Shown here in pieces: positions 1-12,534 of a DNA stretch of 12,534 nucleotides. Numbering within the stretch: the stretch's first letter is position 1; every line of letters begins with the position of its first letter. Source of the DNA: a virus (lineage: Duplodnaviria > Heunggongvirae > Uroviricota > Caudoviricetes). A program made the position numbers and the translations under genes. The stretch lies in IMG/VR virus record IMGVR_UViG_2600254997_000018; one strand, given 5' to 3'. The notes beneath the pieces are model-generated. The model was given only the letters and a program-made list of their open reading frames with translations, did not search any database and was not told the DNA's origin.

Positions 1-104
1 CACAGCTCGTTGACAGCCTCTTCACGACTGATTCCAAGGCGAGCTGCCACCACATGTGAAGAGGCTTTTTTCAGTGCTTTCAGTGCGTCAGATACGGTTT
101 CCAT
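1..104 (-). CDS. Hypothetical protein, N-terminal part only (gene runs off the window start)
   Basis: ATG at 104..102 preceded by GGAGGA Shine-Dalgarno (complement of 112-117), 21 nt downstream of the DnaC-like stop. Open frame continues to position 1, N-terminus reads METVSDALKALKKASSHVVAARLGISREEAV. Not in the ORF track because truncated. Confidence 0.3.
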   Translation of the reverse strand, partial: METVSDALKALKKASSHVVAARLGISREEAVNEL

Positions 105-125
105 TAAAATTTCCTCCGGACAAAA

Positions 126-872
126 TTACTTCACAACCCTCATATTGCTGACATTTGGACGCCAGCTATCCCAGTTAAACGTCACCCATCGACCACCGTT
201 CATGGTCATGCGGTCCATAATCCTCTCACCAAGAAGTGTACTCATTGCGGCATGATTCAGGTTTGTTAACATCCCGACACTGCACAGTGATGCTGTCCGG
301 CGATCAATTATCTGGTGTAATACCACCTGCTCGTTTTTCGTCTCACGCTGAACGCCTATTTCATCCAGGACCAGCAAATCAACCCCGCAAAGCTCCTGTA
401 AAAATTTTTCCCCGGACTGGCCGTTGTCGTAGCTGTCATGCAACACACTCATGACGTCAGACACGGTGACGATAATCACGCTGCTCCCCTTCGCCATCAG
501 CCGGTTGCCCATCGCCGCTGCAAGGTGATTTTTCCCGGTGCCGGTTTTACCGCTGAACACAAAATTCGTGCACCCGGTCATCAGTTCGTCAGCGATGGAT
601 TTTGCCTGGCTCAGCGCGTGTTTTTGCCCGTCGTTCTGCACCTGATAATTCGCAAACGAGCATTTGCTGTGCAGAGGCTGGATGCCCGAACGATTCAGGA
701 TTTTTTCCACCCGCAACTGGCGATTCTGGCGGTTAATCTCCTCGCTGCGTTTTCGTCCTTCAGCAAGCTGCCATTCCCGCCACTCCTCCACCGTCCGGTA
801 CGGTGGAACCGCCCCCTGTGGTGCAAGTCTGCGAATACGTTCAAGAACCCCGGCTGCCGCAATGTTTTTCAT
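126..872 (-). CDS. DnaC-like replicative helicase loader (prophage-encoded, IstB-like AAA+ ATPase)
   Basis: 248-aa ORF with Walker A GKTGTGKNHLAAA and Walker B LLVLDEIG. Recalled close similarity along the whole length to E. coli DnaC and to Rac YdaV. GGGGG Shine-Dalgarno upstream of the ATG at 872. Confidence 0.9.
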   Translation of the reverse strand: MKNIAAAGVLERIRRLAPQGAVPPYRTVEEWREWQLAEGRKRSEEINRQNRQLRVEKILNRSGIQPLHSKCSFANYQVQNDGQKHALSQAKSIADELMTGCTNFVFSGKTGTGKNHLAAAMGNRLMAKGSSVIIVTVSDVMSVLHDSYDNGQSGEKFLQELCGVDLLVLDEIGVQRETKNEQVVLHQIIDRRTASLCSVGMLTNLNHAAMSTLLGERIMDRMTMNGGRWVTFNWDSWRPNVSNMRVVK

Positions 873-1355
873 GCCACGTCACCCCCTGAATCCAGGCGGT
901 ATTTCAGTGTCCGGTTCAGAAATGTGATTTACGCAACGCTGCGCGGGCGAACGCCCCAGGCGGATAACCAGTTCATCCCATTTTTCCCGGAGTTTTGCCG
1001 GACTCATGATGTGTTTTTACCCAGAACGAATCCCGCTGGACACGCCCAAACATTTCACAAATCTGCCGGTGACTACGTCCATCCAGCATACGCATCATGC
1101 GCACATCATTCGCCCAGGTCGTCCAGTTAGGTTCTCTGGGGCGTGACACCTCACCATCATCACTGGCGGCCTGTTCATACAACGCCACAACCCGTCCCCA
1201 AATCCACTGCGCACAGGTTCGACATCCTCACGGGTACCCCACTGTCGCTTCGGTACATTCCAGGTATGCGCATCCGGGTGTTTCTCCAGAAATCGCTCAA
1301 CTGGTGATGATTGTTTTTCGTCCGGCAGTGAAACGTCCGGACAAGAAGATCTTTT

Positions 1356-1507
1356 ATCTTGACGGATCAGGTTTTGATACTGACGGATCGGGGTCAATCA
1401 TCGCCCCCCTAATCGGCAGTTTTTTATCAACCGTTGATCCATCAAAATTTGACGGGTCAACCGTTGAGGGGTCAATATTTGACGGGTCAACTGTTAACGG
1501 GTCATTT
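1356..1507. repeat. Iteron-like direct and inverted repeats; putative prophage replication origin inside the initiator gene
   Basis: Core GACGG(G/A)TCA recurs at least 6 times. Two near-identical 30-bp tandem units at 1448-1477 and 1478-1507, two ~21-bp units at 1359-1400, and an AT-rich stretch follows at 1505-1545. Layout resembles lambda ori within gene O. Confidence 0.6.
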
Positions 1508-1768
1508 TTTGTCCGGGCTAATTTTTCTTTTCGGTTTATATGCCTCACGCGCCGCAGTTGCAGCTGCTTCGAGTTTTTCCACATTAAGCCGATAGATATT
1601 GCTTACGTTACGCCCACCGACCTTACGCTCTTCCTTCGTCAGCCAGCCCTCTTTCGCCAGTTCTGCAATAGCAGATTTAACGGTGGATTCACTTCTTGCA
1701 CCGATCTGACGCCGGATAGTTTCAATGGCAGGCCATGACACGCCCTCGTCATTGCTGTAGTCTAGCAA
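1502..1768 (-). CDS. Helix-turn-helix N-terminal segment of a phage replication initiator (O/YdaU-like), apparently truncated
   Basis: 88-aa ORF with HTH-like stretch AIETIRRQIGARSESTVKSAIAELAKEGWL. It starts on TTG with weak Shine-Dalgarno and contains no Met, and it ends at a stop just past a T6 run (1505-1510) inside the iteron array, so it looks like one piece of a longer broken gene. Confidence 0.5.
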   Translation of the reverse strand: MLDYSNDEGVSWPAIETIRRQIGARSESTVKSAIAELAKEGWLTKEERKVGGRNVSNIYRLNVEKLEAAATAAREAYKPKRKISPDKK

Positions 1769-1875
1769 GACGGGCCATAACCGCCACCCTGGATAAGATC
1801 ATGCCGGTGAAGGCGCACCCTTCCCAGACAAGACCATGAAGCTTGCTGCTCATAAAACCCCCGAACACCGTGCTT

Positions 1876-2301
1876 TTAGTGCATCACCACAGCATTCCCT
1901 GCCGGGCCGCCGCGATTCATCTGGTCATACAAAACAACCGCTGACGCAACAAAATCATCGACATCCTTCACCAGCCGATCCCTCCGTTCGACAATCTCAC
2001 GGTAATATTCAGAACTGTGGCTGCGCATACGGGCCACCAGCAGAGGCGGCATTGCCTTTTCGATCGCCGGTAACAGAGCCTGCATTTTTTCAACAGCATC
2101 AGGGGTGTCTTTATCCAGCCAACGGAAAATTTTCTGGGTATTACGAGCCAGGGCTTCCGGATGGCTGTCGTCGTACAGTTCCGGGAACGTCATCCCCAGT
2201 TCGAAATAAGTCCGGGCTATTTCAGCTGCAGGAACTTTCTCACCATCAGGATATGCCCAGGCATTCATCGCCATGCGGATGTGCTCATGTTTGATTTTCA
2301 T
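1876..2301 (-). CDS. ydaT: YdaT-like prophage protein (occupies the CII-like position)
   Basis: 141-aa ORF starting MKIKHEHI, immediately downstream of and overlapping the ydaS-like gene by 17 nt, as in Rac ydaS-ydaT. Assignment is from recalled similarity and synteny. Confidence 0.75.
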   Translation of the reverse strand: MKIKHEHIRMAMNAWAYPDGEKVPAAEIARTYFELGMTFPELYDDSHPEALARNTQKIFRWLDKDTPDAVEKMQALLPAIEKAMPPLLVARMRSHSSEYYREIVERRDRLVKDVDDFVASAVVLYDQMNRGGPAGNAVVMH

Positions 2302-2608
2302 GAATCATTTGCCTCTTGATGCTTCGGGTATGATCGTTTTCGTCATTTGGTTGCTTCATCGACATATTCTGCGAATAACATGACGAGCGTCGTAAGTATG
2401 TCCAATCAACATCAGGACGAAGTTCTTCACACAGGACACCACCTTTTGTTGCTCGTTCAATCGCAGGACATCTCTCAGCAGGCAACTGACGTACACCTTT
2501 GATCCATTGATTTACGCTTGGAGGAGATACACCTAAAAGCCTAGCCATTGCTGATTGCCCACCGACAACAGCACAAGCTCGTTTGAATGAATAGTTATCT
2601 TTTTTCAT
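2285..2608 (-). CDS. ydaS: YdaS-like Cro-type HTH DNA-binding protein
   Basis: Sequence MKKDNYSFKRACAVVGGQSAMARLLGVSPPSVNQWIKGVRQLPAERCPAIERA closely matches recalled Rac YdaS. Start placed at ATG 2608 (GGAG Shine-Dalgarno 8 nt upstream) rather than the track's GTG at 2629. Divergent from the repressor gene. Confidence 0.8.
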   Translation of the reverse strand: MKKDNYSFKRACAVVGGQSAMARLLGVSPPSVNQWIKGVRQLPAERCPAIERATKGGVLCEELRPDVDWTYLRRSSCYSQNMSMKQPNDENDHTRSIKRQMIHENQT

Positions 2609-2629
2609 CGAATGAACTCCAAAAAACAC

Positions 2630-2732
2630 ACAATAATATTAGGCTTAGCCTAATGTGATTGTCAATAGGCTATGCCTAACGATTCGAGAGTAGGGATTGC
2701 CTAACGCGATGCGCATAGGAGACTATTAAGCA
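2630..2732. promoter_or_regulatory. Divergent promoter/operator region between the ydaS-like and repressor genes
   Basis: Three operator-like sites about 26 bp apart: perfect 17-bp palindrome ATTAGGCTTAGCCTAAT (2638-2654), TAGGC-TAT-GCCTA (2666-2678), TAGGG-ATT-GCCTA (2691-2703). AGGAG Shine-Dalgarno at 2716-2720 before the repressor ATG at 2733. Confidence 0.5.
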
Positions 2733-3209
2733 ATGCTTAGTGGTAAAGACTTAGGCCGAGCGATAGAGCAGGCCATTAACAAAAAAATTGCATCAGGAGC
2801 CGTCAAATCAAAGGCGGAAATCGCACGTCATTTCAAAGTCCAACCACCATCAATCCATGACTGGATTAAGAAAGGTTCGATAAGTAAAGACAAACTTCCA
2901 GAACTATGGCGTTTCTTTTCTGATGTGGTTGGTCCAGAGCATTGGGGGCTTAACGAATACCCCATACCAACCCCATCCACTTCAGATACAAAAAGTGAAC
3001 TTTTAGACATAAACAGCCTTTATCAAGCCGCCTCTGATGAAAAAAGAGCAATTGTGGCTTTCCTCTTATCTGGAAATGCTACGGAGCCTAGTTGGGTTGA
3101 TCATGACGTTCGCGCCTACATTGCCGCAATGGAAATGAAGGTAGCTAACTATCTGAAAAATCAAGAATCAAAACGGAAAAGCCAGAACATCACCAAGACA
3201 GGAACTTAA
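2733..3209 (+). CDS. racR: RacR-like prophage repressor (HTH, no recognisable S24 peptidase/LexA-type domain)
   Basis: 158-aa ORF (same length as Rac RacR) with HTH-like stretch SKAEIARHFKVQPPSIHDWIKKGSIS. Divergent from ydaS/ydaT-like genes as in Rac. Identity from synteny, length and recalled similarity, not a search. Confidence 0.65.
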   Translation: MLSGKDLGRAIEQAINKKIASGAVKSKAEIARHFKVQPPSIHDWIKKGSISKDKLPELWRFFSDVVGPEHWGLNEYPIPTPSTSDTKSELLDINSLYQAASDEKRAIVAFLLSGNATEPSWVDHDVRAYIAAMEMKVANYLKNQESKRKSQNITKTGT

Positions 3210-3283
3210 ACTTATATGGTACGACGGGAAATTCCTAGTTCCCGTTAGTTAACTCCTACTACCTCTCCCACAAACCATCACCT

Positions 3284-3346
3284 ATTAGGTCGCACCCAAA
3301 TCATTAGGCGCAGCCTATTGACAGGCAATTAGGCATTTCCTATAGT
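3284..3346 (+). promoter_or_regulatory. Sigma70-like promoter (TTGACA-17-TATAGT) with flanking and embedded TTAGGC operator-like sites; putative promoter of the DUF1391-dicF-dicB operon
   Basis: -35 TTGACA 3318-3323, 17-bp spacer, -10 TATAGT 3341-3346. Palindrome TAGGC-GCA-GCCTA at 3305-3317 abuts the -35, ATTAGGC at 3328-3334 sits in the spacer, and ATTAGG also occurs at 3284-3289. Confidence 0.5.
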
Positions 3347-3527
3347 TTTCCCATACCAACCCATCCCGTCCCACACAATACAGGGCAATACCTAGAGTTA
3401 CCCGGCAGTGGTCAGGGATTAAGTAGCCAGCCCGAGGCGTATGAACATGACGGCGGGAACACTTTGTATAACAGCGCAGCAGGTTTTTAGTTCCGCTACC
3501 CCAGCGTTAAGGGGAAATGAGGTCAGC

Positions 3528-3680
3528 ATGGATACTATCGAGCTTGGCAACAACGAATCTCTGGTATGTGGCGTGTTTCCCAATCAGGACGGCACGTTTA
3601 CCGCGATGACGTATACCAAAAGTAAAACGTTTAAAACCGAAGCTGCCGCGCATCGCTGGTTAGCCAGAAACGCTAACTGA
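3528..3680 (+). CDS. ydfA: DUF1391 small protein (YdfA/YdaF-like)
   Basis: 50-aa product MDTIELGNNESLVCGVFPNQDGTFTAMTYTKSKTFKTE closely matches recalled Qin YdfA. GAGG Shine-Dalgarno 7-8 nt upstream of ATG 3528. The track's 79-aa ORF from 3441 is an in-frame upstream extension. Confidence 0.7.
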   Translation: MDTIELGNNESLVCGVFPNQDGTFTAMTYTKSKTFKTEAAAHRWLARNAN

Positions 3681-3942
3681 TTAGCGCCAGTAAAAACAGG
3701 TTTCCACAGGTTAATTTACCCTGAAAAGTCAGGGCATAACACGAAAGCGCACGGCGAGATCCCTTTGCATATAAGTCTTGTCGTTAAATTTCTTCGACCG
3801 TGCGCTTCTGGTTGTGGCAATCCGCGAAATGGCGCGGCGGTAAGTATGGCGGGGTTATTCCTTCCCCCATTGAGGACACCGGGTTGTCAGGTTGACCATA
3901 CGCTTAAGTGACAACTTCGCTACAACGCCCTCTGCTATCAAT

Positions 3943-3995
3943 TTTCTGGTGACGTTTGGCGGTATCAGTTTTACTCCGTGGCTGCTCTGCCGCCC
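3943..3995 (+). ncRNA. dicF: DicF small RNA homolog (Hfq-dependent ftsZ-targeting sRNA of Qin-type prophages)
   Basis: TTTCTGGTGACGTTTGGCGGTATCAGTTTTACTCCGTGGCTGCTCTGCCGCCC differs at one position (A to G) from the 53-nt K-12 DicF as I recall it. A T5 run follows at 3996-4000. It lies upstream of the dicB-like gene, as in Qin. Confidence 0.85.
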
Positions 3996-4169
3996 TTTTT
4001 AAAGTGAATTTTGTGATGCGGTGAATGCGGCTATGCGCACGCGGAACAGTTAAAACCAAAAACAGTGTTATGGGTGGATTCTCTGTATCCGGCGTTAATT
4101 GTTAACTGGTTAACGTCACCTGGAGGCACCAGGCACTGCATCACAAAATTCATTGTTGAGGACGCGATA

Positions 4170-4358
4170 ATGGAAACGTTATTACCAAACGTTAATACGT
4201 CTGAAGGTTGTTTTGATATTGGTGTTCTGCTCAGTAACCGGGAGTTTACTGAAGATGCCATTAAGATGAGAAAATATGAACCTTATCTTCTCAATGATAA
4301 TTCCATACTTTCCAGAATTGCCCTTCTTGAACTTGGTATTATCGGAGAACAGCAGTGA
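4170..4358 (+). CDS. dicB: DicB-like cell-division inhibitor (MinC-activating small protein)
   Basis: 62-aa product METLLPNVNTSEGCFDIGV... matches K-12 DicB in length and N-terminus as recalled. GAGGA Shine-Dalgarno upstream of ATG 4170. The track ORF 4065-4358 is an upstream in-frame extension. Confidence 0.8.
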   Translation: METLLPNVNTSEGCFDIGVLLSNREFTEDAIKMRKYEPYLLNDNSILSRIALLELGIIGEQQ

Positions 4359-4543
4359 CTTCAGCGTTTGCACTGGTGATGACCGTTTTTCTTATAACGG
4401 GTGAGCCACAAAATGTGATTACCGGAATTTATGCCAGTAAAGAATCCAGCCTCCAGGCAAGAGACGAGCAAAAAATTTCTGGTGAATGCCTACCGGTAAA
4501 AAAAGTATCGCTGTACCTGAATAACGAAACACCGGCTGGATAA
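4355..4543 (+). CDS. Small membrane protein, YdfD-like (Qin lysis-protein position)
   Basis: 62-aa ORF with an N-terminal hydrophobic helix (SAFALVMTVFLITG). GTG start overlaps the dicB-like stop (GTGA) with GGAG Shine-Dalgarno 7 nt upstream; alternative ATG at 4379. Assignment by synteny (gene after dicB in Qin is ydfD). Confidence 0.55.
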   Translation: MTSAFALVMTVFLITGEPQNVITGIYASKESSLQARDEQKISGECLPVKKVSLYLNNETPAG

Positions 4544-4638
4544 CCCGCCAGCTATATTAACGCCATACCAACGGATTAAAAATGCCAGCAATGGCAGGGA
4601 TTCGTTCACCCTGAAATCTGTAATGAGGTTAAAACACA

Positions 4639-7110
4639 ATGAGTAAAATCTTTATTTGCGCTGCTATTCCTGACGAACAGGCCATAAAAGAAGATAGCGC
4701 TGTTGCGGTGGCCACTGCCATTGAAGCCGGTGATGAGCGTCGCGCACGCGCAAAATTTCACTGGCAATTTCTGGAGCAATTCCCGGCAGCTCAGGACTGC
4801 GCTTATAAATTTATTGTCTGCGAGGATAAACCCGGCATACCCCGCCCTGCCCTCGATTCCTGGGATACCGAATATATGCAGGAAAACCGCTGGGATGAGG
4901 AGTCAGCTTCCTTTGTACCGGTCGAACCAGAATCCGATCCGATGAACGTCAATTTTGACAAGCTGTCCCCTGAAGTACAGAACGCAGTCCTAGTTAAATT
5001 CGACACATGCGAAAACATCACCGTTGATATGGTGATTAGCGCACAGGAATTACTACAGGAAGACATGGCAACATTCGGCGGACATATCGTTGAAGCGTTG
5101 ATGAAAATGCCAGAAGTTAACGCCATGTATCCTGAACTTAAACTGCATGCCATCGGGTGGGTTAAGCATAAATGTGAGCCTGGCGCTAAATGGCCTGAAA
5201 TTCAGGCAGAGATGCGCATCTGGAAAAAACGTCGCGAAGGTGAACGCAAGGAAACCGGAAAATACACGTCTGTTGTTGATCTCACCCGCGCCAGAGTCAA
5301 CCAACAGAACACTGAAAACGCTGCTGAAAAAACCGGGGCTGTCACTGTTGCCATTCGCCGCGAATACAAACAGACATGGAAAACACTCGACAATGAACTG
5401 GCCTGCGCCCTCTGGCCCGGTGATGTGGATGCAGGAAACATTGACGGTACCATCCATCGCTGGGCGACAAATGAGGTTATCGACAAGGATCGCGAAGACT
5501 GGAAGCGTATCTCAGCATCAATGCGCAAACAGCCCGAAGCACTTGGCTATGACCGTCAGACTATTTTTGGCCTTGTTCGCGAACGTCCGATCGATATTCA
5601 CAAAGATCCCGTTGCACTGAACAAATATATCAGTGAATACCTGACGACAAAGGGCGTGTTTGAACATGAAGAAACAGACCAGAGCTCTACTGATGCTCTC
5701 CAGCCGTCAGCAGCACAAACTGCTCCAGTGGAGACGGCAGAATCCGATACTCAAAAAAATGAAATCCTGGTGGAAGCTGAACCATCTGTAGAGCGTGAAG
5801 GACCATTTTATTTCGTCTTTACCGATAAGGGCGGGGAAAAATACGGCAGGGCAAACAAACTTTCTGGTCTGGACAAGGCGCTGGCTGCCGGCGGTACCGA
5901 AATCTCAAAAGAAGAATATTTTGCCCGAAAAAATGGCACATACACGGGCTTACCGCAAAATGTGGATACCGCTGAAGATTCCGAACAATCAGAGCCGGTA
6001 AAAGTTACCGCTGACGAAGTAAACAAAATTATGCAGGCAGCCAATATCAGCCAGCCTGACGCCGATAAATTGCTTGCTGCATCACGTGGTGAATTTGTTG
6101 AAGGGATTAGCGACCCGAATGATCCGAAATGGGTGAAAGGGATCCAGAGTCGCGACGCTGAGGACCAGAATCAGCCCAACGTGAAACAAAATGAGCCAGA
6201 AGCGGAACAAAACAGCCCGGATACGCAACAAAACGGGCCAGAAGAACAACAACCAGAACCAGCAGTGCAACAGGAACTGGAAAAAGTTTGCACCGCATGC
6301 GGTCAGACCGGTGGCGGCAACTGTCCTGACTGTGGTGCGGTGATGGGGAACGCAACCTACCTGGAAACATTCGATGAAGAGAATCAGGCTGAAGCTCAGA
6401 AAAATGATCCGGAGGAAATGGAAGGCACTGAACATCTGCACAAGGAGAACACTGGCAGCGATCAGTATCACGCCAGCGATAATAAAACTGGCGAAACAGC
6501 AAATCCCTTAATTAAAGTGAACGGTCATCATGAAATCTCATCCACCAGCAGGTTGTGGCACCATCTGATGATTGACCTTGAAACAATGGGAAAAAATCCT
6601 GATGCGCCAATAAACGCTATAGCCGGTAAGTTTTTTGATCCGGCAACCGGAGAGATGGGGCCAGAATTCAGCAAAACTATCGATCTGGAAACCGCAGGTG
6701 GGGTCATCGATCGGGACACCATTAAGTGGTGGCTGAAACAGTCACGCGAAGCACAATCCTCCATTCTGACCGATGAAATCACGTTGGATGATGCACTGCT
6801 GCAATTCCGGGAATTTATCGACGAAAACTCCGGTGAATTTTTTGTTCAGGTCTGGGGTAACGGTGCAACTTTCGACAACGTGATTTTACGCCGTTCATAT
6901 GAACGGCAGGGGATCCCCTGCCCGTGGCGTTACACCAATGATCGCGATGTAAGAACGATGGTTGCTCTGGGACTGGTGATGGATTTCGACGCAAGAACGA
7001 CTATTCCATTCGAAGGTGAACGCCATAACGCCCTGCACGATGCGCGTTACCAGGCAAAATACGTTTCAGCCATCTGGCAAAAACTGCTCCCGAGTCAGGC
7101 TGATTTTTAA
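4639..7110 (+). CDS. Prophage exonuclease, 823 aa: RecE/exodeoxyribonuclease-VIII-like N-terminal region, CxxC-x7-CxxC zinc ribbon, C-terminal DnaQ-like (DEDDh) 3'-5' exonuclease domain
   Basis: Intact 2.47-kb ORF with GAGG Shine-Dalgarno. Motif DKLLAASRGEFVEGISDPNDPKWVKGIQ recalls RecE. C-terminal ~190 aa carry DEDDh motifs (MIDLETMG, WGNGATFDNVIL, HNALHDARYQ). Zinc ribbon encoded at 6289-6333, acidic/Gln-rich linker at ~6160-6280. Confidence 0.85.
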   Translation: MSKIFICAAIPDEQAIKEDSAVAVATAIEAGDERRARAKFHWQFLEQFPAAQDCAYKFIVCEDKPGIPRPALDSWDTEYMQENRWDEESASFVPVEPESDPMNVNFDKLSPEVQNAVLVKFDTCENITVDMVISAQELLQEDMATFGGHIVEALMKMPEVNAMYPELKLHAIGWVKHKCEPGAKWPEIQAEMRIWKKRREGERKETGKYTSVVDLTRARVNQQNTENAAEKTGAVTVAIRREYKQTWKTLDNELACALWPGDVDAGNIDGTIHRWATNEVIDKDREDWKRISASMRKQPEALGYDRQTIFGLVRERPIDIHKDPVALNKYISEYLTTKGVFEHEETDQSSTDALQPSAAQTAPVETAESDTQKNEILVEAEPSVEREGPFYFVFTDKGGEKYGRANKLSGLDKALAAGGTEISKEEYFARKNGTYTGLPQNVDTAEDSEQSEPVKVTADEVNKIMQAANISQPDADKLLAASRGEFVEGISDPNDPKWVKGIQSRDAEDQNQPNVKQNEPEAEQNSPDTQQNGPEEQQPEPAVQQELEKVCTACGQTGGGNCPDCGAVMGNATYLETFDEENQAEAQKNDPEEMEGTEHLHKENTGSDQYHASDNKTGETANPLIKVNGHHEISSTSRLWHHLMIDLETMGKNPDAPINAIAGKFFDPATGEMGPEFSKTIDLETAGGVIDRDTIKWWLKQSREAQSSILTDEITLDDALLQFREFIDENSGEFFVQVWGNGATFDNVILRRSYERQGIPCPWRYTNDRDVRTMVALGLVMDFDARTTIPFEGERHNALHDARYQAKYVSAIWQKLLPSQADF

Positions 7111-7168: not shown

Positions 7169-7372
7169 ATGAGCAGCATATTTTTAACCGAAAATGAATT
7201 GCAAACGTTAACGGGCTGCAAATATGCAAGCCACCAGCGCAACTGGTTAATAAAAAATGGGCTTCCGTTCTATACCAATCGTAGTGGAAAACCGATCGTC
7301 AGTCGGGAACTGTTTACCTGTATAAAAACTTTACCACCACGTGAGGCTGAACCTGATTTCGGTGCGATCTAA
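7169..7372 (+). CDS. Excisionase-like protein (Xis, DUF4224-type)
   Basis: 67-aa ORF directly upstream of the integrase. Its stop TAA overlaps the integrase ATG (TAATG at 7370-7374), the classic xis-int arrangement. Confidence 0.6.
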   Translation: MSSIFLTENELQTLTGCKYASHQRNWLIKNGLPFYTNRSGKPIVSRELFTCIKTLPPREAEPDFGAI

Positions 7373-8397
7373 TGGGAAGACGAAGGAAAAATCCCGAACA
7401 CGAAAAATTACCGCCAAAGGTATACCCCAATAAATATAGTTATGTATGGAAACCGACATCCAGAGAATCTGTAACCTTAACTGCAATCGAGGATGGTTTA
7501 GCCGCATTATGGAAAAAGTATGAAGAAACGGTTAACCATCGCGATCGCGCAATGACATTTGGGCGTTTGTGGGAAAAATTTCTCGCCAGCGCCTATTACA
7601 GCGAGCTTAGTCCTAGAACTCAAAAAGATTATCTGCAACATCAAAAAAAGCTGCTGGCCGTATTCGGTAAGGTGCTGGCCGATTCTGTAAAACCAGAGCA
7701 CATCAGACGATACATGGACAAAAGAGGCGAGCAGAGTAAAACGCAGGCAAACCATGAAAAAAGCAGTATGTCGCGCGTTTATAGTTGGGGGTATGAGCGA
7801 GGATACGTGAAGGCTAACCCATGTGCAGGTGTAAGTAAATTCAAGGCCAAAAACCGCGAACGATATGTAACCGACAAAGAATACCAGGCAGTATTAAGCG
7901 TTGCACCTCTTCCTGTTTTTATCGCAATGGAAATTGCCTATCTGTGTGCAGCGAGGGTTTCCGATGTGTTATCGCTGAAATGGGAGCAGATTGGAAACGA
8001 CGGGATCTTTATCCAGCAAGGGAAAACAGGGAAAAAACAGATAAAAGCATGGAGTCCACGATTACAGGCGGCGATCGAAAAAGCAAAACAGTTACCAACA
8101 TCCGCCTATGTAATCAGCAATCAATACGGCAACCGATATATGTACAAAGGCTTTAACGAAATGTGGGTAGAAGCAAGAAATCACGCAGGCAAAATTTCAG
8201 GTATTTTAACCGACTTCACCTTTCATGATCTGAAGGCGAAAGGAATTTCAGACTATGAAGGAAGCAGCCGGGATAAGCAACTTTTCTCTGGTCACAAAAC
8301 CGAAGGGCAAGTGCTAATCTATGACAGGAAGGTTAAAGTTTCACCAACACTTGATGTCCCGTTACCTGAAAATATTCCAAGAAAATATTCCAAGTAA
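7372..8397 (+). CDS. Phage integrase, tyrosine site-specific recombinase
   Basis: 341-aa ORF whose C-terminal region carries residues consistent with the tyrosine-recombinase catalytic set (R in ARVSD, H/K in HDLKAKG, Y in LIYDRK). It ends 52 bp from the 3' end of tRNA-Ser. Confidence 0.9.
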   Translation: MGRRRKNPEHEKLPPKVYPNKYSYVWKPTSRESVTLTAIEDGLAALWKKYEETVNHRDRAMTFGRLWEKFLASAYYSELSPRTQKDYLQHQKKLLAVFGKVLADSVKPEHIRRYMDKRGEQSKTQANHEKSSMSRVYSWGYERGYVKANPCAGVSKFKAKNRERYVTDKEYQAVLSVAPLPVFIAMEIAYLCAARVSDVLSLKWEQIGNDGIFIQQGKTGKKQIKAWSPRLQAAIEKAKQLPTSAYVISNQYGNRYMYKGFNEMWVEARNHAGKISGILTDFTFHDLKAKGISDYEGSSRDKQLFSGHKTEGQVLIYDRKVKVSPTLDVPLPENIPRKYSK

Positions 8398-8449: not shown

Positions 8450-8539
8450 TGGCGGAGAGAGGGGGATTTGAACCCCCGGTGGAGTTGCCCCCACTCCGGT
8501 TTTCGAGACCGGTCCGTTCAGCCGCTCCGGCATCTCTCC
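8450..8539 (-). tRNA. serU: tRNA-Ser (anticodon CGA)
   Basis: Reverse complement reads GGAGAGATGCCGGAGCGGCTGAACGGACCGGTCTCGAAAACCGGAG...TCTCTCCGCCA: 7-bp acceptor stem, anticodon loop CU-CGA-AA, long variable arm, encoded CCA. Matches E. coli serU as recalled. Confidence 0.9.
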
Positions 8540-10965: not shown

Positions 10966-11196
10966 TCAAATTCTCGCCAAAACACTTTTTAATGCCTTTG
11001 CGAATTCATCCAGACTTATATTGTCAATTTTTTGCCCAACGATGACTGACTCCGAAACATCGGCCATTGCGGGCCATCGCGTTTTGTAATCAGCATAAAT
11101 TGCAACAACAGAGGTATTATAGGCACTTGCCATATGTAATATTGAGGTGTCAGGAGTTATTGCAATATAAGCATCTTTTATGATTGCTGCTGAACG
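10966..11196 (-). pseudogene. C-terminal fragment of a glycosyltransferase family 9 (heptosyltransferase-like, yeeL-like) gene, cut by IS10
   Basis: About 76 codons (ITPDTSILHMASAYNTSVVAIYADYKTRWP...) resemble GT9 C-terminal regions. The track ORF's first 13 codons are IS10 end sequence, so the reading frame enters the IS at 11197. Confidence 0.45.
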
Positions 11197-11209
11197 CTGA
11201 GAGATCCCC

Positions 11210-12419
11210 TCATAATTTCCCCAAAGCGTAACCATGTGTGAATAAATTTTGAGCTAGTAGGGTTGCAGCCACGAGTAAGTCTTCCCTTGTTATTGTGTAG
11301 CCAGAATGCCGCAAAACTTCCATGCCTAAGCGAACTGTTGAGAGTACGTTTCGATTTCTGACTGTGTTAGCCTGGAAGTGCTTAGTCCCAACCTTGTTTC
11401 TGAGCATGAACGCCCGCAAGCCAACATGTTAGTTGAAGCATCAGGGCGATTAGCAGCATGATATCAAAACGCTACTGAGCTGCCCGTTCGGCTATGGCGT
11501 AGGCCTAGCCCGTAGGCAGGACTTTTCAAGTCTCGGAAGGTTTCTTCAATCTGCATTCGCTTCGAATAGATATTAACAAGTTGTTTGGGTGTTCGAATTT
11601 CAACAGGTAAGTTAGTTGCTAGAACCATGGCTCCTTTGCCGACGCTGAGTAGATTTTAGGTGACGGGTGGTGACAATGAGTCCGTGTCGAGCGCTGATTT
11701 TTTCGGCCTTTAGAGCGAGATTTATACAATAGAATTTGGCATGAGATTGGATTGCTTTTAGTCAGCCTCTTATAGCCTAAAGTCTTTGAGTGACTAGATG
11801 ACATATCATGTAAGTTGCTGATAGGTTTCCAGTTTTCCGCTCCTAGGTCTGCATATTGTACTTTTCCTCTTACTCGACTTAACCAGTACCAACCCAGCTT
11901 CTCAACGGATTTATACCATGGCACTTTAAAGCCAGCATCACTGACAATGAGCGGTGTGGTGTTACTCGGTAGAATGCTCGCAAGGTCGGCTAGAAATTGG
12001 TCATGAGCTTTCTTTGAACATTGCTCTGAAAGCGGGAACGCTTTCTCATAAAGAGTAACAGAACGACCGTGTAGTGCGACTGAAGCTCGCAATACCATAA
12101 GTCGTTTTTGCTCACGAATATCAGACCAGTCAACAAGTACAATGGGCATCGTATTGCCCGAACAGATAAAGCTAGCATGCCAACGGTATACAGCGAGTCG
12201 CTCTTTGTGGAGGTGACGATTACCTAACAATCGGTCGATTCGTTTGATGTTATGTTTTGTTCTCGCTTTGGTTGGCAGGTTACGGCCAAGTTCGGTAAGA
12301 GTGAGAGTTTTACAGTCAAGTAATGCGTGGCAAGCCAACGTTAAGCTGTTGAGTCGTTTTAAGTGTAATTCGGGGCAGAATTGGTAAAGAGAGTCGTGTA
12401 AAATATCGAGTTCGCACAT
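11210..12419 (-). pseudogene. IS10 transposase, frame-disrupted (N-terminal 266 aa intact, middle and C-terminal parts in other frames)
   Basis: ORF 11619-12419 matches IS10 Tnp from MCELDILHDSLYQF... but stops at ...AKEPWF*. The expected continuation VLATNLPVEIRTPKQ... is in another frame, and the C-terminal ...HFQANTVRNRNVLSTV...GYALGKL is in ORF 11210-11419. At least three indels within ~200 bp. Confidence 0.8.
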
Positions 12420-12480
12420 CTTGTTGTCTGATTATTGATTTTTCGCGAAACCATTTGATCATATGACAAGATGTGTATCT
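12412..12480 (+). ncRNA. IS10 antisense RNA-OUT (predicted from position in IS10)
   Basis: Established IS10 layout puts pOUT about 115 bp from the outside end, transcribing outward. The window shows the expected stem: CGCACATCTTGTTGTC (12413-12428) pairs with GACAAGATGTG (12465-12475). GATC at 12467-12470. Confidence 0.5.
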
Positions 12481-12534
12481 ACCTTAACTTAATGATTTTT
12501 ATCAAAATCATTAGGGGATTCATCAGGCGTAGCG

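Follow-up and report, generated by a model that had tools for sequence, protein, structure and literature searches.

Six extra bases in the lambda-O-type replication initiator gene of an Escherichia coli E851/71 draft contig are probably consensus errors in repeated DNA

The closest described counterparts of the locus analyzed here are the O gene of phage lambda and the replication genes of the Rac prophage of E. coli K-12. In lambda, ori-lambda is part of the initiator gene itself, its iterons (four 18-nt sites about 20–24 nt apart) falling between the parts that encode the N- and C-terminal domains, and the gene lies directly upstream of that for its helicase-loading partner, lambda P. In Rac, the genes run in the order racR-ydaS-ydaT-ydaU-ydaV, with YdaU belonging to the DUF1376 family and a DnaC-type loader gene immediately downstream of ydaU. 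Here we consider the initiator gene of a Rac-like prophage that is interrupted in its deposited record. The window, by which we mean the whole 12,534-bp stretch of DNA that was analyzed (IMGVR_UViG_2600254997_000018), is the entire contig ALNX01000077.1 of draft assembly GCA_000754045.1. In the strain list of PMC3897749, ALNX00000000 is entered as E. coli E851/71. Alteration of the window after deposition was ruled out, as positions 1–4768 match the public record base for base. Both ends of the contig lie within repeats. Read on the minus strand, positions 1–3300 form a lambdoid immunity and replication module; the replication genes belong to a Rac-like lambdoid prophage that E. coli E851/71 carries at tRNA-Ser. 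The features of the contig that bear on the analysis are as follows.

126–872, minus strand: DnaC-type helicase loader (YdaV-like), intact; PRK12377 at 507 bits, PHROG 50
879–1853, minus strand: lambda-O-type replication initiator gene, in six segments; 975 nt here against 969 nt in relatives
1352–1392, no strand assigned: further direct repeats, two 20-nt copies of the GATCCGTCAG type, downstream of the main array (family D2)
1427–1516, no strand assigned: iteron array in the initiator gene, five overlapping 30-nt copies in a 15-nt register (family D1)
1876–2301, minus strand: YdaT-like gene, intact; PF06254, base-identical to relatives, in the context of WP_000693916.1
2285–2608, minus strand: YdaS/Cro-like regulator, intact; PF15943 (P22_Cro), 107 aa as annotated in relatives
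2733–3209, plus strand: RacR-type repressor, intact; annotated racR (WP_000948454.1) in identical relatives
7372–8397, plus strand: tyrosine integrase, frameshifted; Pfam match
8450–8539, minus strand: tRNA-Ser(CGA), adjoining the integrase; prophage attachment site
11197–12526, minus strand: IS10/ISVsa5-like element, at the opposite end of the contig and within a glycosyltransferase-9 gene

The helicase-loader gene lies immediately downstream of the initiator, starting 6 nt past its stop, and is of the DnaC type and not of the lambda-P type. It is 80% identical to K-12 YdaV and shows zero differences from its relatives. A first-pass annotation, made from the letters of this stretch alone, had contrasted a broken initiator with intact neighbours. 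This holds for the YdaT-like and DnaC-like genes that flank the initiator, but not for all neighbours, as the integrase is frameshifted here and in close relatives. The integrase is also annotated as frameshifted in independent complete genomes, where its sequence is identical to that of the window. It is thus a reproducible pseudogene and provides a contrast case to the initiator lesions; its frameshift also means that the prophage is already defective. The copies of the prophage in relatives carry an IS481 insertion downstream. At position 3221, 12 nt past the racR stop, the window has a minus-strand T where the relatives L004 and L137 have G. A megablast search of the Phage GenBank collection with the initiator region returned no matches.

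In close E. coli relatives, the position of the interrupted gene is occupied by an intact ortholog, WP_000095676.1, which is 322 aa long and encoded by a single 969-nt CDS. When the six extra bases described below are removed, the gene in the window becomes a 969-nt ORF, and the 322 aa that it encodes match WP_000095676.1 at 100% identity. Residues 1–322 of this repaired initiator align to positions 1–298 of the 298-position PHROG 391 profile, “replication initiation O-like” (E 2.9e-106). Its N-terminal part matches Pfam HTH_36 at 27.7–28.2 bits against a cutoff of 25, with a weak match to DnaD_N, while residues 203–302 align to residues 188–277 of lambda O with 41% identity over 100 residues (E 2e-24). 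The gene had been labeled “YdaU/O-like”. The O-like half of that label is borne out by the full-length PHROG 391 match; the YdaU half applies to the last 19 residues only. No Pfam match to DUF1376, the YdaU family, was found in the initiator, and in the alignment with K-12 YdaU only those 19 residues align, with 13 of 19 identical (E 6e-6). YdaU orthology was accordingly ruled out, as the body of the protein is without homology to YdaU. The tail in question, RCVNHISEPDTEIPPGFRG, is encoded by the last ~20 codons (window 879–940) and resembles the C-terminus of K-12 YdaU; against solved structures it gave only weak matches, all to the primosomal protein DnaT (E 0.004–0.03). DnaT acts together with DnaC in the primosome. 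Since a DnaC-type loader gene lies immediately downstream both here and in Rac, the tail may be a loader-binding peptide that is shared.

The iteron array encodes DPxxV pentapeptide repeats, and it is the presumed origin by analogy with ori-lambda within gene O. By the same analogy, iteron binding would fall to the N-terminal winged-helix domain, and recruitment of the loader and host DnaB to the lambda-O-like C-terminal domain together with the tail. Many E. coli genomes have several copies of this gene family, in up to 3–5 places per genome and with most copies 88–95% identical.

No uninterrupted reading frame spans the initiator in this record. Frame 0 of the 975-nt gene contains 14 internal stops, and the coding sequence is spread over six segments that follow the path f0/f1/f2/f0/f2/f0, using three frames of one strand.

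From ATG 1853, minus strand: segment 1, 34 codons, ended by the extra base at 1764
1768–1502, minus strand: segment 2, 88 aa, with Pfam HTH_36
1584–1354, minus strand: segment 3, 76 aa, iteron-encoded
1397–1095, minus strand: segment 4, 100 aa
1188–973, minus strand: segment 5, 71 aa
1007–879, minus strand: segment 6, 42 aa, the true C-terminus

The first five of these had been listed in the first-pass annotation (as a 34-codon frame, 1768–1502, a frame running to 1354, 1397–1095, and 1188–973), and all are present on the minus strand. Its start codon was also accurate: the stop codon of the YdaT-like gene ends 23 nt before the A of ATG 1853, and GGGGG is at 1858–1862. The gene had been given as spanning 973–1853, of which the start stands, while the end has to be moved to 879 to take in the sixth segment. 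Likewise, the description of a gene broken into “at least four frames” was right about the fragmentation, but the count is six segments in three frames. Given the 14 stops in frame 0, and given that six specific deletions restore a 322-codon ORF identical to that of relatives, the fragmentation is far beyond chance.

Alignment to intact orthologs, which the earlier annotation had proposed as a means of placing each indel, placed them at 1764, 1512, 1360, 1218–1219, and 1013. When positions 850–1900 of the window are aligned to the nearest relatives, the differences consist of six inserted bases at five sites, with no substitutions.

1764, minus strand: extra base 1, T, in TTGC[T]AGAC, outside a homopolymer
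1512, minus strand: extra base 2, A, in CCGG[A]CAAAAAA, two bases upstream of the A6/T6 run
1360, minus strand: extra base 3, A, in CGTC[A]AGAT, within one short repeat copy of 1352–1392
1218–1219, minus strand: extra bases 4 and 5, AA, in GTCG[AA]CCTG, outside a homopolymer
1013, minus strand: extra base 6, C, in AAAAA[C]ACATC, splitting an A6 run

One junction had been assigned to a T6 run at 1505–1510. The run is there, but the junction is not in it: the extra A lies at 1512, and the length of the run is unchanged. Removing one T, as had been suggested, would restore the frame without restoring the native sequence. The third extra base lowers the likeness of its repeat copy to the twin copy within 1352–1392. 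As the number of inserted bases is a multiple of three, the final segment is back in the frame of the start codon.

These bases are private to this assembly, as no relative or collection that we examined has any of the six. Each of the five broken junctions had no exact match in the IMG/VR viral contigs, where the intact version of the first junction, used as a control, had at least 120 matches. The broken first junction, at 1764, was also absent from the metagenome and genome contig collections. The 88-aa and 71-aa fragment proteins are recorded on one contig only, ALNX01000077.1, and for the 100-aa fragment (1095–1397) no called gene is on record. Compared with the nearest complete genome, NZ_CP148334, the window has four substitutions, six inserted bases, and no deletions over 11,196 aligned bases. 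Every insertion falls inside the 969-bp initiator gene and no substitution does; the chance of all five events falling within that gene is about 5e-6. An independent draft, L137 (GCA_043596905.1), is closer still, with one substitution (position 3221) and the same six bases separating it from the window over 6.3 kb, and its initiator is intact at 322 aa. Nine relatives at 88–100% identity all have single ORFs, and the six bases are absent in 9/9; like all relatives compared, these are strains other than E851/71. Where an identical YdaT-like neighbour was found, one ORF of 310–322 aa lay beside it in 10/10 contexts. Among the assessable initiator copies in IMG/VR, 117 of 118 are a single ORF of 313–322 codons. 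The sole shortened ORF among the 118, of 185 codons, is L053 (IMGVR_UViG_2728369593_000010). Relative to its nearest intact relative, it has lost single bases from T6 and A6 runs; the window does not show this kind of slippage or homopolymer pattern.

The only other small indels on the contig are in the IS10/ISVsa5-like element. Its transposase gene is broken by two non-homopolymer 1-nt insertions (11384 and 11474) and one deletion (11624); when repaired, it encodes 402 aa, one residue off WP_001339197.1. The 266-aa transposase fragment is recorded only on ALNX01000077.1. Across both loci, the 2,304 nt of multi-copy DNA hold all eight small-indel events of the contig, and the 10,230 nt of unique DNA are free of them (Fisher p 1.3e-6). 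The two clusters of indels lie 0.9–1.8 kb inward from the contig ends. The outermost ~900 nt at each end (window 1–1012 and 11625–12534) contain no indels relative to reference copies, although the outermost IS end has two substitutions, and the indel-free ends may relate to how the assembly bridged the repeats. The IS is flanked by 9 nt (11188–11196) reading TGCTGAACG and 8 nt (12527–12534) reading GCGTAGCG. These flanks do not match, so no target-site duplication was found around the element, with just 8 nt available on one side. The contig may join the flanks of two different IS copies, or an IS-mediated rearrangement may have occurred.

Starting from the lesions, their privacy to this contig, and their confinement to repeats, all of which are observed, we infer a technical cause. 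As judged from the sequence, the six initiator bases are very probably errors in a draft-assembly consensus, made where the DNA is repeated. Such errors could arise, for example, if reads were error-prone or gaps were filled within repeats beyond the reach of short-read correction, and the real gene would then be an intact 322-codon ORF, as in every relative examined. The earlier annotation had allowed for assembly errors in a caveat, and this caveat is probably right, given six bases private to the contig, no substitutions alongside them, and other small indels only in the IS. Its main conclusion, that the element is probably unable to start its own replication, would hold only if the lesions were real, and it is probably wrong. 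Repetition is not a uniform predictor of error, however, since other lambdoid prophages also have the DnaC-like and YdaT-like genes, which are error-free here.

The main competing explanation is that the insertions are real. The initiator of E851/71 would then be a strain-private pseudogene with several frameshifts, in an already defective Rac-like prophage whose own origin cannot fire. In favour of this, the public record as deposited contains the bases, decay of the prophage is already under way (relatives have the integrase frameshift too, and their copies carry the downstream IS481), an initiator copy is broken in another assembly (L053), and loss of the initiator from a prophage that is cryptic would cost nothing or even be selected for. 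We nevertheless consider this reading unlikely. It needs five independent insertions, with no deletions or substitutions, in 969 bp, against four substitutions and no indels across the flanking 10.2 kb. Under neutral decay, substitutions would outnumber indels, deletions would be at least as common as insertions, and indels would lie in slippage contexts. The initiator instead has five insertion events, mostly outside homopolymers, with zero substitutions and zero deletions, which makes natural decay a poor fit. With an indel-to-substitution ratio of 0.1–0.2, the level of substitution outside the gene predicts approximately 0.04–0.08 indels within it; five or more would then be expected with a probability of about 1e-8 to 1e-9. 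Selection could explain the first frameshift but not the four further ones, and the position of most sites outside homopolymers is unlike slippage and unlike L053. In addition, the closest relative, one SNP away, is intact, and a second repeated element on the same contig, the IS, has lesions of the same style. A genuine lesion such as that of the integrase recurs in independent complete genomes; those of the initiator do not, and in this respect they are unlike a genuine pseudogene. In one further reading, all eight indels would be real and would stem from a localized process that directs +1 insertions preferentially into mobile-element genes for replication and transposition (here the prophage initiator and the IS10 transposase) and leaves 10 kb of adjacent DNA untouched. 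We regard this as very improbable; if true, it would amount to targeted inactivation of selfish-element genes in this strain.

Two further explanations concern the origin and the use of the extra bases. They could have come from a chimeric consensus, or from gene conversion, involving a diverged paralogous initiator in another lambdoid prophage of the same genome. The multi-copy nature of the family is in keeping with this, with up to 3–5 places per genome and most copies 88–95% identical, and four of the five sites are within stretches that are identical across paralogs. However, 0/9 sampled relatives (88–100% identity) have a base at any of the six positions, and paralog-type substitutions do not accompany the insertions, the gene being otherwise 100% identical to that of L004. 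A chimera with a paralog was ruled out by the nine-relative alignment as the direct source of the insertions; as the extra bases were not copied from any sampled paralog, simple mixing of paralogs in the consensus is not their source, and we consider an origin of this kind highly improbable. Alternatively, the layout could be functional, through programmed ribosomal frameshifting or as several separate small genes. The six bases are a multiple of three and the last segment regains the frame of the start codon, but this would arise by chance one time in three. Conservation of the multi-frame arrangement in related genomes had been named beforehand as one of the observations that would speak against a broken gene; it was absent, with one fused ORF in all relatives examined, including those that are otherwise identical and lack the bases, and the layout is conserved nowhere. 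To our knowledge, there is no precedent for five consecutive programmed frameshifts in one gene, and we give a functional layout almost no credence. Consensus error in repeated DNA thus remains our preferred reading of the six bases.

The value of this observation is mainly in quality control. The broken initiator is confirmed as a property of the record but is probably not a real feature, and the true initiator gene is probably an intact ORF. A literal reading of the record would have the prophage of an EPEC reference strain carry a replication gene hit by decay several times, together with a dead origin. Annotation pipelines, and surveys of pseudogenes or prophage viability that include this draft, would miscount the initiator and the IS transposase as pseudogenes. 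If the lesions were real, they would make an ordinary strain-private pseudogene in a cryptic prophage that was already without a working integrase.

Compared with known patterns of error, the lesions resemble draft-assembly indel errors in repeats: small indels occur only in multi-copy sequence near both contig ends, with none in unique sequence, none in the other assemblies searched, and no accompanying substitutions. They are unlike the classic homopolymer signature of pyrosequencing, as they are mostly non-homopolymer insertions. With regard to replication systems, the gene is like lambda O in its full-length match to PHROG 391, its homologous C-terminal domain, its iterons placed within the gene, in the stretch that separates the coding regions of the N- and C-terminal domains, and its place directly upstream of a helicase-loading gene. 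It differs in that its N-terminal DNA-binding half is without pairwise similarity to that of lambda O and matches HTH_36 and DnaD_N instead, and in that its ORF is interrupted in this record. The iterons are five copies in a 15-nt register where lambda has four 18-nt sites, and the partner is a DnaC-type AAA+ loader where lambda has lambda P. Compared with K-12 Rac, the prophage is at tRNA-Ser beside mtfA and not at the Rac site, and the initiator is no homolog of YdaU (DUF1376) outside its last 19 residues. Its order of RacR-type repressor, YdaS, YdaT, initiator, and loader is nonetheless that of Rac, with a loader 80% identical to YdaV and a repressor that is annotated racR in relatives.
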